In this document: in pieces, positions 4,310 to 11,044 of the stretch | Layout: each line of letters starts with the position of its first letter | Numbering within the stretch: the stretch's first letter is position 1 | Assembly: GCA_963736855.1 (NCBI GenBank) | Contig: CAVTQK010000006.1 | Coordinates: forward strand, 97,370 to 161,369 | Source: an uncultured delta proteobacterium | Lineage (GTDB): Bacteria; Desulfobacterota; Desulfobacteria; Desulfobacterales; UBA2156 | Direction: 5' to 3' | DNA: 64,000 nt | Notes under the pieces: generated by a model | Told to the model about the DNA's origin: nothing | The model's input: only the letters and a program-made list of their open reading frames with translations | The model's database searches: none | Position numbers and translations under genes: made by a program

Positions 4310-4322
4310 AAAAAAAATGAGA

Positions 4323-4410
4323 TCCACCACAGGGGCGGCGAAGCAAGCCTGAGAAGGTACCCTTTGAACCTGATCCGGGTAATGCCGGCGTAGGGATGAG
4401 ATGCGGTGGA
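4323..4410 (+). ncRNA. TPP riboswitch
   Basis: AGGGG...CTGAGA...ACCCTTTGAACCTGATCCGGGTAATGCCGGCGTAGGGA consensus upstream of thiM. Confidence 0.95.
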
Positions 4411-4427
4411 GATTTTCAGAGGGGACC

Positions 4428-5288: not shown

Positions 5289-5938
5289 TGGAAGATTTTT
5301 CAAGACGGATCGATTATTCCCTATACCTCGTTACAGACCGGGGTCTTGCTGGAGGAAAAAGCACCCTCGAAATCGTCCGGGCCGCGGTGATGGGGGGTGT
5401 GACCTGCGTCCAGCTTAGGGAAAAAAAGGGCTCCACCCGGGAATTTGTCGCCGAGGCTCTTGCTGTTCGCGACCTTTTGAGAAGTCTACATATTCCCCTC
5501 ATCATTAATGACCGCCTGGACGTGGCCTTGGCGGTTCAAGCCGACGGTCTGCATCTGGGACAAACGGACATACCCCTTGAATTTGCCCGGCGCATCGTCG
5601 GAAGATCCATGATCATCGGCATCTCGGCTGAATCCGTAAATGATGCCGTCGAGGCGGAAAAGGGCGGGGCGGATTATATCAGCGTCAGCCCCGTCTTCTC
5701 GACCCCGACAAAGACCGACACCGCACCTCCCCTCGGACTGGAAGGACTTAAAAAAATCCGGGGACGGGTTGCACCCCCCTTGGTGGCCATCGGCGGGCTG
5801 AACCGGGAAAATATCGAAGCGGTCATCCGGAATGGGGCAGACGGGGTAGCCGTGGTATCATCCATTGTCTGCGCACAAGATCCCATGCAGGAGGCACAAG
5901 AATTGAAACGTCTCATTCAAAAGGCCAGATCCACTTGA
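5288..5938 (+). CDS. thiE: Thiamine-phosphate synthase
   Basis: LYLVTD, VQLREK, IINDRLDVA, HLGQTD, TPTK, AIGG; TAATG coupling to thiM. Confidence 0.96.
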   Translation: MEDFSRRIDYSLYLVTDRGLAGGKSTLEIVRAAVMGGVTCVQLREKKGSTREFVAEALAVRDLLRSLHIPLIINDRLDVALAVQADGLHLGQTDIPLEFARRIVGRSMIIGISAESVNDAVEAEKGGADYISVSPVFSTPTKTDTAPPLGLEGLKKIRGRVAPPLVAIGGLNRENIEAVIRNGADGVAVVSSIVCAQDPMQEAQELKRLIQKARST

Positions 5939-6939
5939 AACTTAAAGAGATCGGTGAGTTCGGATGGATCGACCGGATTCGCGGAGGATGCCTGATCCGC
6001 GAGGACACAATCCTGAAAGGAATCGGGGACGATGCAGCCGTTTTCTTCACCCGGCCTGACATGGCCACACTGGTCACGACCGACTTGCTGGTGGAACGCG
6101 TCCATTTCCTGAAAAACGCCACTTCGGCATTCAACTTGGGATATAAGGCCATGGCCATGAATTTAAGCGATATCGCAGCTATGGGAGGAGAGCCGAGAGA
6201 GGCTTTTGTCAGCATCGGGATCCCCCAAGATTGCTCCATTGAGTTCTTGGACGAACTCTACGAAGGGATGAAGCATCTTGCCGCCGAACACCGGGTGAAC
6301 ATACTCGGCGGGGATACCACAGGCTCTAAAACCGATCTCATCATCAATATCACGGTGGTCGGAACGATACCCCCTTCCGAGGTTCTTTATCGTCATGCCG
6401 CACAACCCGGAGACGCGATCCTGTCCACTGGATTTTTAGGGAACAGCCGGGCAGGACTTCACATTATCCTGGAAGGGATCCCGATAGATGCCCCCTTTCT
6501 CCAAGAGCTCGTGGATGCCCACCTGAAGCCCCGGCCCTACGTGCTCGAAGCAAGATTCCTGGCAAGTCTGGGAGGGGTCCATGCAGCAATTGATGTCAGC
6601 GACGGCCTGAGCTCGGATCTGGGCCATATCCTCAAGTCAAGCAGCGTAGGCGCGCAATTGGTAGCCCAAAAGATCCCCATCTCCGAAAACCTGAAACGAT
6701 TCTGCGCGAGATTCAGCCGGGATCCATTGGAATACGCTCTCTCCGGCGGTGAAGACTACACCCTTTTGATCACGGTGTCTCCCGACAGGGAAAAAACGGT
6801 CCGCGAGGCTTATAAGAAAACCTTTGAAACCCCCTTATTCCCGATCGGCTGGATCAACGATTCCCGAAAGCTGGAGATGGTGAGCACCTCGGGGGCCTTG
6901 AATAAGGTAACGGCGTCCGGATGGGATCACTTCAAGTGA
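5935..6939 (+). CDS. thiL: Thiamine-monophosphate kinase
   Basis: GEF, GIGDDAA, NLSDIAAMGG, GGDT, DVSDGL, GGEDY. Confidence 0.96.
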   Translation: MKLKEIGEFGWIDRIRGGCLIREDTILKGIGDDAAVFFTRPDMATLVTTDLLVERVHFLKNATSAFNLGYKAMAMNLSDIAAMGGEPREAFVSIGIPQDCSIEFLDELYEGMKHLAAEHRVNILGGDTTGSKTDLIINITVVGTIPPSEVLYRHAAQPGDAILSTGFLGNSRAGLHIILEGIPIDAPFLQELVDAHLKPRPYVLEARFLASLGGVHAAIDVSDGLSSDLGHILKSSSVGAQLVAQKIPISENLKRFCARFSRDPLEYALSGGEDYTLLITVSPDREKTVREAYKKTFETPLFPIGWINDSRKLEMVSTSGALNKVTASGWDHFK

Positions 6940-7644: not shown

Positions 7645-8646
7645 TTATGCCGATAAATGGACCACAAGTGTCCTTCTTGCAAGCATTCCCTGAAATTTGG
7701 GGAGCGGCGAAAAATCGGCAGCACGCCCAAAAAAGGTCGAGGGACTTTCATCGACGGCATGCACGGTCACGAGCAACGCTCTATGTCCGCCGAAGGGGAT
7801 CGATGCTTCCACAAGGGGGTCGGAGATACGGAAATCCGGATCCTCCAATGCTTTTGCCAACCCTTCTTGAAAGGCCTCTTTCCAAGGGTCAGTCCCTTCG
7901 GCTCTACCATTCGCGGTCGGAATGGCATGAAATTGCACCGACCGGTATGAAAGTGGTGCAAGTTCCAGCAGATGTTCCATCGCCGGCCTGCTGTGAGTCA
8001 CCCAAACGAGGGTTTTATCGCTGTCTTCCGGAACGACGCCGTGAAGGAGCAATCGGGCCCATGCGGCCAGCCGCTCCGGAACCATGTAGTCTTCCGGTGT
8101 ATCCGATCCGAAAGCGTCGATCTTTGTATGGGTAGACGCCTCTCCCGTGAGGCTTTGAAATAGTTTCTTTTCCGTCCGAGCTAAGGATCTCAGGTCTTTT
8201 TGAACCTCGAAGCTTTCGATATCGTATTGCTGAGCCATATGAAGGAAAAGGGCTGCCCTGAATACGAGATCCTCAGGCTTTTGACTCAAACCGGCCTTAC
8301 CGTTTTTTTTCATGGAAGAAACGATTTGGGATGCAATTTTTTCATCGTCTGGTTCGGTGGATCCCTCCAGCCAGGCAACAAACCGGGTTTTAAGATCCCC
8401 TTTGGATCCATGCATTCGGGCAAAGGCCTGAAATTCGTTAAAGGCCTCGGTCAGCCGAGCCCGCTGATCCACCATCACTGGACAAACGGTTAAGAAGCCG
8501 CCTTCGATAGCCGCCGACATAGATTCCGGAACCTTAAGCAGGAACGGCTGAATCGTTTCAACCGAAGCAAAGCACGCCGCAAGGTCCTCTAGAACGGTTT
8601 CCTGAACAACCGTGTTGGGGAAATATATCGCTTTTATGGCTTTCAT
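7645..8646 (-). CDS. Hypothetical protein
   Basis: Long ORF; start moved to ATG 8646 (MKAIKAIYFP) with AGGAG RBS, removing the overlap with the upstream gene. Confidence 0.75.
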   Translation of the reverse strand: MKAIKAIYFPNTVVQETVLEDLAACFASVETIQPFLLKVPESMSAAIEGGFLTVCPVMVDQRARLTEAFNEFQAFARMHGSKGDLKTRFVAWLEGSTEPDDEKIASQIVSSMKKNGKAGLSQKPEDLVFRAALFLHMAQQYDIESFEVQKDLRSLARTEKKLFQSLTGEASTHTKIDAFGSDTPEDYMVPERLAAWARLLLHGVVPEDSDKTLVWVTHSRPAMEHLLELAPLSYRSVQFHAIPTANGRAEGTDPWKEAFQEGLAKALEDPDFRISDPLVEASIPFGGHRALLVTVHAVDESPSTFFGRAADFSPLPKFQGMLARRTLVVHLSA

Positions 8647-8704: not shown

Positions 8705-10981
8705 TTAAGCAGGGACGTCCCTGATTTCGATTCCCATGGACCGAAGCCGGTCCCGGATTCGGTCCGCAGCGTCCCAGTCTCCGGCGTTACGGGCTGCTTC
8801 CCTGCTTTTGATGAGGGCAATGATCTCCGGGTTTGGTGTGCTGTCCTGAAACCGGAAAATGTTTAAAACCCTGTCGATATCCTGAAATGCGCGGATAATC
8901 TTTTCAGCTCCCTTATCATCAATTTTTCTTTGCCGGATGTCGATGTTGATCTTTCTGATATTATTAAAAAGCGACGCCAATGCCTCAGGCATATTTAAAT
9001 CGTCATCCATGGCCGAAAGGAATCCATGCTTGATGTCATAAAGGAGTTGATCCACCTCGGGGTCCGGGGCTCCCCCTTTGATCTGCCGGAGGGAATGAAT
9101 ACAAGCGTCGATCCGTCTCAAAACACGTCTGGCTTCTTCCAGCCGATCCTGCGAAAAAGCCAGCGGCTTTCGATAATGATTGGAAAGAAGCCAATATCGA
9201 ATTTCGCGGCCGGAGAACCCCTTATCAAACAGATCCTTAAGGGTCACTCCGCCTTGCTTTTTTTCCTTTTCTGCAGCGTTGAACAGGACCCGCTCACAGT
9301 GAATCCAGTAATTGGCCATGGGGTGCCCGGTCAAGGCCACGGAAATGGCGATGTGATTTTCATGGTGGGGAAAAACCAGCTCCCGACCGCTGGTATGAAT
9401 ATCGTACCGATCCCCCATGGACTTCCTGGCTATTGCCGCACACTGAAGGTGCCACGACGGACGAACATTCCCCCACTCGGTCTTAACGAAAATCCCGCGT
9501 TTGAGTTCGGAAAGTCTCGACCGTTTCATGAGGGTGAAATCCCTGGGATTGTCCTTTTCGTATTCATCCAGATCCACCGTAGCCCCGAGCTTGATTTTAT
9601 TGATATCGATTCCGGACAGTTTTCCGTAATCCGGGATCCGGGAAATATTAAAATAAAGGGATCTCAGCTTTTCATAGGCAAACCCGCTCTTCTTGAGGTC
9701 ACGGGCCATCTGAACCATATCTTGGAGATTTCCGCTTGTCCGGGGATAGCTGTCCGCCGGCCGGACGCCCAGGGATTCAAGGTCCTTTTGAAACCATTGA
9801 ATGTGCTCATCCGTAAACTCGGGAAGGGAGATATTGGCCGATTCCGATCCTGCCAGGGTTTTGTCGTCGAAGTCGGTGATGTTTACGATATGACGCACCG
9901 CATACCCCCGGTATCCGAGGTACCGGCAAAGCAGATCGGAAAATACGAATCGGCGGCATTCTTCGATTTGCATTCGGGCATGTGCGGTGGGACCGCAGGT
10001 ATAGAGCGAGGCCTTACCGGGAATCAGGGGCTTAAAGATCTCCTCTTTCCGGCTCATTGTGTTAAAGAGCCTCAAGTCCACCTTTTCTTTTATTGCAAAG
10101 AGAGTCGTGCTGAGATACCTTTCCCCGCCGTCCGGAAGGATTACCACCATGACACCCTTTTCCATGAGAGCGGCTTCCCTGCAAGCAATTGCCATGGCCG
10201 CGCCGCTGCTCATCCCTGCAAAAATCCCCTCTTCTTTGGCCAGCCGTCGGGTCATCTCGAAAGCTTCTTCATCCTCGACGTTGATCTTTTTATCCAGGCG
10301 ATTCTTATCGAAGATTTCAGGCTGGTAAGCCTCTTTCATGTTCTTAAGCCCCTGGATTTTATGACCCAGGTAAGGCTCCACACCGATAATCTGGACGGCC
10401 GGATTGTATTCCTTCAGCCGCCTCGAGATCCCCATAAGGGTGCCTGATGTCCCCAGGGTCGCCACCACAGCGGTAACCGCTCCATGGGTCTGGCGCCAGA
10501 TCTCTTCGGCAGTTCCATGGTAATGGGCTTGCCAGTTGGCATCGTTGTTATACTGATCCGGCATGAAATAAAAATTCGGATTCTCCCGGGACATCCGATA
10601 AACTTCCTCGATGGCGCCGTCGGTTCCTAAGTGTCCCGGGGTCAGAAGGATCTCCGCCCCCCGAGCCTTAAGGATTTTTCTTCGCTCTTCACTCACCGCT
10701 TCCGACATGGCCAAGAGGAGGTGGTATCCCTTCACTGTACATACCAATGCCAGGCCGATTCCCGTGTTACCGCTGGTGGCTTCGATGACCGTTTTGTCGG
10801 GCTTCAAAAGGCCGCAATGTTCCCCGGCTTCAATCATGGAAAGCGCAGGGCGATCTTTCACCGATCCGCCCGGATTAAACGATTCCAGTTTCGCCAATAG
10901 CCTCACCCTCGGGTTGGGGTTTAACCGCCGAATCTCCACTATAGGGGTGTTGCCGATGGCATCAAGGATGGACTGGTTCAT
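8705..10981 (-). CDS. Fusion of cysteine synthase (CysK/CysM family) and cysteinyl-tRNA-synthetase-like domain
   Basis: N-half: IGNTP, KLESFNPGGSVKDR, TSGNTG, GTSGT, PDGGERYLST. C-half: YTCGPT, NITDFDDK, RPSWHLQC, FPHHEN, MDDDLN, ADRIRDRL. One continuous frame. Confidence 0.93.
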   Translation of the reverse strand: MNQSILDAIGNTPIVEIRRLNPNPRVRLLAKLESFNPGGSVKDRPALSMIEAGEHCGLLKPDKTVIEATSGNTGIGLALVCTVKGYHLLLAMSEAVSEERRKILKARGAEILLTPGHLGTDGAIEEVYRMSRENPNFYFMPDQYNNDANWQAHYHGTAEEIWRQTHGAVTAVVATLGTSGTLMGISRRLKEYNPAVQIIGVEPYLGHKIQGLKNMKEAYQPEIFDKNRLDKKINVEDEEAFEMTRRLAKEEGIFAGMSSGAAMAIACREAALMEKGVMVVILPDGGERYLSTTLFAIKEKVDLRLFNTMSRKEEIFKPLIPGKASLYTCGPTAHARMQIEECRRFVFSDLLCRYLGYRGYAVRHIVNITDFDDKTLAGSESANISLPEFTDEHIQWFQKDLESLGVRPADSYPRTSGNLQDMVQMARDLKKSGFAYEKLRSLYFNISRIPDYGKLSGIDINKIKLGATVDLDEYEKDNPRDFTLMKRSRLSELKRGIFVKTEWGNVRPSWHLQCAAIARKSMGDRYDIHTSGRELVFPHHENHIAISVALTGHPMANYWIHCERVLFNAAEKEKKQGGVTLKDLFDKGFSGREIRYWLLSNHYRKPLAFSQDRLEEARRVLRRIDACIHSLRQIKGGAPDPEVDQLLYDIKHGFLSAMDDDLNMPEALASLFNNIRKINIDIRQRKIDDKGAEKIIRAFQDIDRVLNIFRFQDSTPNPEIIALIKSREAARNAGDWDAADRIRDRLRSMGIEIRDVPA

Positions 10982-11044
10982 TCGTGCTGGATCCTCAAAT
11001 TCGGCCAGAGCCTGCACGCATGCCATCGGCTTCGTTTTCCCGGA

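Follow-up and report, generated by a model that had tools for sequence, protein, structure and literature searches.

A cysteine synthase fused to a CysRS-like domain without ATP-site motifs: a candidate tRNA-Cys-binding pseudo-synthetase in Desulfobacterota

The regulatory subunit HisZ and the HisRS-like domain of GCN2 are textbook examples of parts of the translation machinery that have been reused as metabolic sensors, and in GCN2 the pseudo-synthetase is fused to a catalytic domain and is thought to act by binding tRNA. We know of no synthetase-derived sensor pseudo-enzyme for cysteine. Here we analyze a gene that joins a cysteine synthase in frame to a domain resembling cysteinyl-tRNA synthetase (CysRS) from which the ATP-site motifs have been lost. 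It lies on the reverse strand of a stretch of 64,000 nucleotides, which we call the window (GenBank assembly GCA_963736855.1, contig CAVTQK010000006.1, positions 97,370 to 161,369), from an uncultured delta proteobacterium of the order Desulfobacterales, phylum Desulfobacterota. Among the described systems, HisZ, a paralog of HisRS and the regulatory subunit of HisG, offers an analogy, being likewise synthetase-derived, non-charging and attached to the biosynthetic enzyme of its amino acid; it is listed among the paralogs of aminoacyl-tRNA synthetases (aaRS) in the available part of a review (PMC9437257). The fusion would resemble it as a synthetase paralog without charging motifs that is covalently joined to a biosynthetic enzyme. 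However, HisZ is a non-homologous, class II protein that forms a separate subunit without an anticodon-binding function, whereas the fused module keeps an anticodon-binding domain (ABD). The HisRS-like domain of GCN2 is also similar by analogy only, as it is eukaryotic, belongs to class II, binds many uncharged tRNAs and has a kinase as its output.

Two paralogs of CysRS itself have to be considered, and they are the only ones given in the accessible text of the same 2022 review (PMC9437257). MshC, the mycothiol cysteine ligase, is described in the available portions of PMC2922099 and PMC9437257 as a paralog of CysRS that acts outside translation and has kept the cysteine/zinc pocket; it is ATP-dependent and tRNA-independent, whereas the fusion has no ATP motifs and has an ABD. 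We rejected identity with MshC, since the fusion scores 155.9 bits with TIGR03447 against a cut-off of 485.1 and the ATP motifs are absent. CysRS* of Desulfobacterales, which like the fusion occurs in this bacterial group as an additional copy of CysRS, lacks the ABD and lies downstream of selC*/selB*, according to the accessible part of Mukai et al. 2017 (PMC5389517). The fusion differs in possessing an ABD, in having no selC* linkage and in having tmk and a gene of unknown function as its neighbors, so that this identity was rejected as well. There is no tRNA gene within the 64-kb window, and neither a second tRNA-Cys nor a selC* was found in the genome, which has one tRNA-Sec and a single, ordinary tRNA-Cys (GCA anticodon, U73, G1:C72). 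No description of a cysteine synthase-CysRS fusion was found in the full-text literature, subscription-only papers not being covered, nor in the available portions of PMC2922099, PMC5389517, PMC9437257, PMC5388404, PMC8762117 and PMC10655014.

The two halves are readily placed against their ordinary counterparts. With canonical CysRS (E. coli CysS, 1LI5/1U0B; best solved match 8QHP) the fusion shares the Rossmann core, the connective-peptide (CP) insertion, the DALR domain and the C-terminal ABD, as well as three of the four zinc ligands, the equivalents of W205/H206 and the residues that contact anticodon base G34; it differs in that HIGH, GG.D and KMSKS are replaced and in its N-terminal cysteine synthase. 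With the O-acetylserine sulfhydrylases CysK and CysM (TIGR01136; PDB 2q3b, 2bhs) it shares the lysine that carries pyridoxal 5'-phosphate (PLP), the Asn loop and the glycine-rich loop, and it differs from them by an extra CysRS-like body of 460 residues at its C-terminus and by scores under both the cysM and the cysK equivalog cut-offs. Pfam families were assigned along the whole protein, namely PALP at residues 20-299 (2.8e-70), tRNA-synt_1e at 331-633 (7e-73), DALR_2 at 669-724 and CysS_C at 734-771, and solved structures were matched by both halves (CysRS 8qhp, 9.8e-87, and 1li5, 8.8e-77; cysteine synthases, ~1e-74), a similarity to solved enzymes that is far beyond chance in these alignments. 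An in-frame join of a PLP cysteine synthase to a full-length CysRS fold near ~10090, as the first-pass annotation of the sequence had it, is therefore upheld by these matches and by the position of the linker (Table 1). Residue numbers throughout are counted from the ATG at 11026, which gives a protein of 773 aa (P0001). However, the ATG at 10981, chosen in that annotation, is the likelier start, because the alignments of relatives begin at residue 14-16 of the 773-aa frame and a GAGGA lies upstream of it.

We compared the ATP-site motifs in 121 close homologs of the fusion, referred to as the family, with those in 76 rows of canonical CysRS. At the HIGH position the canonical rows read H76, x, G76 and N60/H16, whereas the family reads H107/N7/Q6/E1, x, G103 and E118/D2/Q1, and the QIEE of the fusion under study is a further-diverged variant present in 2 of the 121 rows. 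Because many true CysRS read HIGN rather than HIGH, what distinguishes the family is an acidic residue at the fourth position. At the KMSKS position, K74, M75, S57/A18, K76 and S74 of the canonical rows stand against a family majority of K-V-D-E-Q; the second Lys of this motif, found in all 76 canonical rows, is Lys in 16 of the 121 family members. The sequence SGRE just before FPHHENE, at the GG.D position, represents a third replaced element, which presumably takes part in ATP binding in CysRS: canonical rows have G76, G72 and D75 here, as against S106/A14/G1, S86/G30 and E118/A2/D1 in the family. The KIIK position of the fusion reads KTLA. Thus, the earlier reading of QIEE for HIGH, a replaced KMSKS and KTLA for KIIK was correct, the alignments to 8qhp and 1li5 placing QIEE under HLGH/HIGH and EKEKK under KMSKS, and the loss of both ATP signatures is a conserved state common to the 121 close homologs, with GG.D lost too. 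In agreement with this, the fusion scores 326 and 328.4 bits with the curated cysS model TIGR00435, under the cut-off of 340, versus 569.4 bits for the other copy in the genome.

That other copy was found when a canonical cysS was searched for in the host genome (3.9 Mb, 100% complete), as the first-pass annotation had advised: it lies at C21:414097-415521, scores 569 bits and carries CHIGHARS and KMSKS, which rules out the fusion as the only CysRS. Decay of the fusion gene was ruled out by the ratio of nonsynonymous to synonymous substitutions (dN/dS), calculated by the Nei-Gojobori method against three congeners (L011-L013), which is 0.05-0.15 in all three parts of the gene, namely, 0.046-0.064 in the synthase half, 0.076-0.133 in the CysRS-like catalytic core and 0.098-0.147 in the helical and anticodon-binding part (two of the three pairs, dS being saturated in the third). 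The replacement residues are themselves fixed (E356 in 118/121, R359 in 121/121, R548 in 121/121 and E549 in 118/121). Over the 458 columns in which the family and canonical CysRS were compared, 49 positions are conserved alike, 10 are conserved within each group but have switched residue between them (Q528 for E, E549 for D and S524 for G are examples), and 39 are fixed at >=95% in the family only, 12 of them in the CP insertion (472-512). The family-only fixed positions, including those in the CP, together with the 10 switched ones, indicate remodelling under constraint. The separate canonical cysS, the absence of the motifs from 121 close homologs and the purifying selection support the proposal of the first-pass annotation that the CysRS half is a pseudo-synthetase, conserved as such and apparently neither a working nor a decaying CysRS.

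Two alternatives bear directly on these data. The protein might have two activities, cysteine synthesis and the charging of tRNA-Cys through a non-canonical ATP site, as its full CysRS architecture including the ABD and its database name, cysteine--tRNA ligase, would suggest, and as would the KMSRS in fused relatives of other orders and the HIGN/KMSKS of a fused protein (P0125) from Nanoarchaeota. However, we consider this highly improbable, given that three ATP-site elements are replaced, with Glu at the fourth position of HIGH (118/121) and at the GG.D aspartate, that a canonical cysS exists in the genome, and that the score is under the curated TIGR00435 cut-off. Alternatively, the CysRS half might be an inert relic of an old bifunctional enzyme that is kept for the folding or solubility of the synthase half, a scenario that would fit the repeated loss of motifs in the clade and the absence of the fusion from 6 of 41 relatives. 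This too has very little probability in our view, as dN/dS is 0.08-0.15 in the CysRS half, the surface anticodon contacts are invariant, 39 positions are newly fixed, and the domain is kept across at least 111 of the 255 genera sampled.

Residues of the zinc pocket and of the anticodon-binding surface have been kept. We take the zinc ligands of E. coli CysRS to be C28, C209, H234 and E238 in its own numbering. The first-pass annotation had the two Cys and the His as remaining in the fusion, and they do: C344, C529 and H554, like W525, H526 and H555, are each present in all 121 close homologs. However, the fourth position, E238 in E. coli, is His558 in the fusion and is variable in the family (E98/K10/H5/I4/V3/G1). 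The 'LSG' motif of the CP is also kept. At the other end of the module, the claim that the anticodon-binding C-terminus remains is confirmed by the CysS_C match at 734-771 and by the four residues corresponding to Arg423, Arg427, Trp432 and Asp436 of E. coli CysRS, which contact anticodon base G34 (Table S2, PMC12684709). In the ungapped C-terminal part of the alignment to 1li5 they are R742, R746, W751 and D755, each again found in 121 of 121 close homologs, and in 32 fused proteins, members of the most degenerate branch among them, the same positions read R32, R31+K1, W27+F4+Y1 and D32. The conservation of these G34-contact residues supports the notion that the CysRS-like half has retained tRNA binding.

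If only the zinc pocket mattered, the module could be a sensor of free cysteine and a strict analogue of HisZ, with the pocket binding cysteine and feeding back on the synthase and with tRNA binding merely vestigial. The presence of C344, C529, H554 and W525 in all 121 homologs and the HisZ precedent in the available text of PMC9437257 would fit this reading, which we nevertheless hold to be quite unlikely, since the anticodon contacts match the zinc residues in conservation and outlast them in a branch that has no zinc cysteines, and the fourth ligand position is variable. By analogy with the cysteine persulfide synthase (CPERS) activity of E. coli CysRS, the module might instead make persulfides or polysulfides, with the fused synthase half supplying the PLP chemistry. 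According to the accessible part of Akaike et al. 2017 (PMC5660078), CysRS makes CysSSH in a PLP-dependent manner without ATP or tRNA, which would suit an organism of a sulfur-cycling phylum. However, the same source, as far as its available text goes, states that CPERS activity of the E. coli enzyme required all four lysines K73, K76, K266 and K269, whereas the K76 position is A in the fusion (N51/D44/I9/A8 are the four commonest states among the 121) and just 16 of these have Lys at the K269 position. As it would also leave the conserved anticodon contacts unexplained, we regard a persulfide synthase as very unlikely.

The synthase half scores 362.4 bits with the cysKM subfamily model TIGR01136, above the NCBIfam cut-off of 344.15, and misses the equivalog cut-offs of cysM (365.5 vs 394.2) and cysK (312.4 vs 350.95). 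The earlier description of an intact PLP cysteine synthase with an SVKDR lysine is well founded: K57, in GSVKDR, is invariant in 66 fused proteins, as are T84-G89 (TSGNTG), Q158, G192/T193/G195/T196 (the GTSGT loop) and S273/S274. We take the Asn loop to bind the carboxylate of the substrate. Because the PLP lysine, the TSGNTG loop, Q158 and the GTSGT loop are all invariant, the synthase half fits an intact enzyme that would act on a free amino acid. Besides the fusion, the genome contains a standalone cysK with 49% identity to the fused half and, directly upstream of it, a cysE-like gene (164 bits, under its cut-off).

This result bears on the suggestion that the enzyme handles a tRNA-bound substrate. 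A PLP enzyme tethered through a flexible linker to a tRNA-Cys binder could convert an amino acid on tRNA-Cys held by the CysRS-like half, in the manner of SepCysS or SelA, or take part in Sec/Cys editing. However, the invariant carboxylate-binding Asn loop and Q158 fit a free amino acid, and SepRS was not found in the genome, where the best match reaches 24.8 bits against a cut-off of 380.65. Furthermore, selA was found in five of five relatives without the fusion and in five of five relatives with it. With selA thus in each of the 10 genomes tested, the use of selenocysteine does not depend on the fusion or go along with it, and no selenocysteine link is apparent. The discrimination of Cys from Sec proposed in the first-pass annotation is accordingly contradicted, the proposed presentation or editing of a tRNA-bound substrate is disfavored by the invariant loop, and a tRNA-dependent conversion of either kind is hardly probable.

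The fusion is widespread. The best 120 database matches are all fusions of 758-776 aa that are 67-99% identical to it and, where named, are called cysteine--tRNA ligase. Of 41 genomes compared within the order, 30 contain a full-length fusion, 5 have one split at contig ends and 6 have none (G006, G008, G010, G026, G032 and G040), while a canonical-type CysRS was matched in 40 of the 41, the exception being G012 (91% complete), where it was not found with the query used. When the phylum was sampled evenly, matches at E<=1e-100 were found in 181 of 401 genomes and 111 of 255 genera, and each of the 150 places listed from this sample covers at least ~620 residues across both halves. Named hosts among the matches listed include Desulforapulum autotrophicum, Desulfatibacillum, Desulfobulbus, Desulfopila, Desulfocurvus and Desulfovibrionaceae; the scan that gave these names used patterns of the synthase half, and most of its at least 80 loci are plain CysK genes, so that it is no measure of distribution. 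In five complete genomes from other families, each has both a canonical cysS (535-598 bits) and a fusion (355-457 bits).

In a quick maximum likelihood tree of 103 CysRS domains (LG+G4; support by the SH-like approximate likelihood ratio test, SH-aLRT, only; rooted arbitrarily on the CysRS of the host genome), all fusions of Desulfobacterota form one clade of 27 rows (support 99), within which the family under study is a subclade of 11 rows (99). KMSRS or KMARS is kept in 7 of the 27 rows, all outside the 11-row subclade, and KMSKS was lost in several branches while the CysRS domain stayed. Such repeated loss with the domain kept implies that the selected function needs neither KMSKS nor adenylation. 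In the branch of the Desulfovibrio ferrophilus type both zinc cysteines have been lost (VGPS, SWFMQMA), and the anticodon domain keeps R, R, W/F and D; the anticodon contacts are, on the alignments, the one feature common to all fused members. The alignment of fusion homologs for HIGH and KMSKS, which had been put forward as a check, thus gives a divided answer: the motifs are missing from close homologs, and H.G. and KMSRS are still found in more distant fused proteins of other orders.

Several related genes deserve mention in their own right. P0125 (768 aa), from a metagenome-assembled genome (MAG) of Nanoarchaeota, is a true cysteine synthase-CysRS fusion that nests among canonical CysRS and is, by its place in the tree, an independent fusion. 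In a Patescibacteria MAG (L069:2992-5279), a cysK and a canonical-type cysS overlap in different frames, and P0165 (858 aa) is a canonical-type CysRS (HIGN, KMSKS) with an N-terminal extension of ~400 residues. A complete genome of another family contains, besides a canonical cysS and a fusion, a third CysRS-like copy (L035/L036, G431:C1:1072239-1073541) that is broken into two parts and interrupted by one TGA and one TAG. One ortholog of the fusion (G011:C19:25988-27598, in a genome that is 66% complete) has two in-frame TGA codons in its CysRS half, which could reflect breakage, assembly error or recoding.

Taking these lines of evidence together, we consider it quite possible, if far from assured, that the fused module is a non-charging, tRNA-Cys-binding unit that couples cysteine synthesis to the status of tRNA-Cys or cysteine. 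A free-substrate cysteine synthase of the O-acetylserine sulfhydrylase type, itself active, would be permanently tethered to a CysRS-derived module that would bind no ATP and form no cysteinyl-adenylate, and would still bind tRNA-Cys through its anticodon. Zinc, together with cysteine or a cysteinyl group, is probably still bound in the former active-site pocket in this order. The module would then report the status of tRNA-Cys or cysteine to the synthase half, or dock the synthase on tRNA-Cys, with the charging of tRNA-Cys left to the separate canonical CysRS. Actual tRNA binding, an allosteric coupling and its direction are what we infer here; the CysRS-like half probably serves as a sensor or docking unit that binds tRNA, wrongly labelled an ordinary tRNA synthetase in databases.

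A different use of the same residues can also be envisaged. Cyclodipeptide synthases use aminoacyl-tRNA as an activated donor. The ATP-less class I core might similarly be a cysteinyl transferase that takes Cys-tRNA-Cys from the canonical CysRS as its activated donor, holds the cysteinyl thiol on zinc and moves the cysteine to an acceptor that the PLP half makes or binds, possibly the product of that half, to give a thiol metabolite, so that it would be an ATP-independent counterpart of MshC and a new aminoacyl-tRNA-dependent enzyme. This would account jointly for what has been kept, namely the anticodon contacts and the zinc/thiol pocket, for the loss of the ATP site and for the residues newly fixed in the active site and the CP. 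Precedents, in the available portions of PMC2922099 and PMC9437257, are MshC, a CysRS paralog that works in thiol biosynthesis, and aaRS-like folds that lack ATP motifs and use aminoacyl-tRNA. However, no acceptor, candidate catalytic nucleophile or partner gene was identified, the gene neighborhoods being of a variable, housekeeping kind, and the Desulfovibrio-type branch has no zinc site. To our knowledge, no cysteinyl-transfer chemistry is known for a CysRS core, and we judge both such a transferase and this particular chemistry to be unlikely.

Returning to the coupling of cysteine synthesis to tRNA-Cys or cysteine status, a number of observations weigh against it. First, since 6 of the 41 related genomes have no fusion, the fusion is dispensable. 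Second, since the Desulfovibrio-type branch lost the zinc cysteines, the binding or sensing of cysteine is not a function shared by all members. Third, of the five fusions in complete genomes of other families, four were read, and three of them keep H.G[LVN] and KMSRS, one being without KMSKS; such relatives in other orders, with H.G. and KMSRS, score above the cysS cut-off (355-457 bits vs 340), and an ATP-dependent activity, past or present, is therefore possible for them, which a pure sensor does not explain. Fourth, the neighborhood holds no functional clue outside the order: a Pfam scan of 45 open reading frames (ORFs) beside 16 fused loci from other lineages found MurJ downstream in two loci, and no sulfur-carrier, E1-like or tRNA-related partner was among these 45 ORFs. 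Finally, a fixed orientation of the two halves was not predicted. An AlphaFold2 (AF2) model of the full-length protein from a 66-row alignment has a mean predicted local distance difference test score (pLDDT) of 85.0 and a predicted TM-score (pTM) of only 0.60, with pLDDT <50 at the linker (306-314) and at a CP loop (480-495); it thus predicts two well-folded halves whose relative orientation is not confidently fixed. When the halves were folded as separate chains, the interface score was 0.52 (best of three controls, 0.00), the runs agreeing in >=83% of contacts and the partners having pLDDT >=84. Of 157 solved complexes, 116 reach the interface mark, and so do 2 of 215 mismatched pairs; as just 18 of those 157 complexes, and both mismatches, reach it at <=0.60, a score of 0.52 counts only as weak, and it lends weak support to the idea that the two halves may touch.

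Table 1. Positions of the fusion gene, its domains and its key motifs in the window (residue numbers from the ATG at 11026)
Feature	Position	Strand	Basis or remark
CysM-pseudoCysRS fusion, coding sequence	8705..10981	-	758 aa from ATG at 10981; open frame to ATG at 11026, 773 aa
Cysteine synthase half, CysM/CysK-type PLP fold II, residues 20-310	10097..10969	-	Pfam PALP; TIGR01136 cysKM
PLP lysine K57, in GSVKDR	10856-10858	-	Translation
Asn loop TSGNTG	10754-10777	-	Translation
Linker AIKEKVD, 7 residues between the halves	10076..10096	-	Translation; AF2 pLDDT <50 at residues 306-314
CysRS-like Rossmann/CP catalytic body without ATP motifs, residues 318-633	9128..10075	-	Pfam tRNA-synt_1e; alignment to 8qhp, 1li5
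Span of kept zinc/cysteine-pocket residues: C344 (9995-9997), W525/H526, C529 (9440-9442), H554 (9365-9367)	9365..9997	-	121/121 close homologs
HIGH position, reads QIEE	9959..9970	-	Alignment to 8qhp/1li5 and translation
GG.D position, reads SGRE	9380..9391	-	Family alignment and translation
KMSKS position, reads EKEKK	9257..9271	-	Alignment to 8qhp/1li5 and translation
DALR_2 helical domain, residues 669-724	8855..9022	-	Pfam, 1.8e-08
Anticodon-binding domain CysS_C, residues 734-771; R742, R746, W751, D755	8714..8827	-	Pfam, 5.2e-08; ungapped end of 1li5 alignment

Within the window, the fusion (Table 1) is flanked by tmk, which lies upstream of it only within the order, and by a conserved gene of unknown function. 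The latter gene, directly downstream at 7645-8646 (-), encodes 333 aa from an ATG at 8646 with AGGAG in front, the ORF list extending it to 8820; no Pfam family and no usable Atlas match was found for it. By tblastn, 7 of the 9 other order-level loci used for comparison have a relative of this gene after the fusion, and in three loci (L037, L039 and L040) the fusion is followed by an ORF of similar size (323-363 aa) to which no Pfam family was assigned. Elsewhere in the window, there is a thiamine pyrophosphate (TPP) riboswitch (RF00059) at 4321-4414 (+), with 61.6 bits, above the gathering score, and a thiL-like gene of the AIR-synthase family at 5935-6939 (+). The segment 40001-48000 has a G+C content down to 0.44-0.47 and a positive GC skew of 0.08-0.18, unlike the remainder of the window. 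Among the 20 sequencing data sets listed as containing this stretch, none is recorded as RNA.

The finding has consequences at several levels. As members of the family are annotated as 'cysteine--tRNA ligase' or 'cysteine synthase', synthetase genes are miscounted in these genomes. If the transferase alternative were true, Desulfobacterota would have a tRNA-dependent route to a cysteine-containing metabolite or a low-molecular-weight thiol. If, on the other hand, the fused module senses the charging of tRNA-Cys, it would be a protein counterpart of T-box logic that acts directly on an enzyme, and the gradation among the fusions, which runs from forms that bear KMSRS to ones devoid of zinc ligands, would record a synthetase in the course of becoming a sensor.

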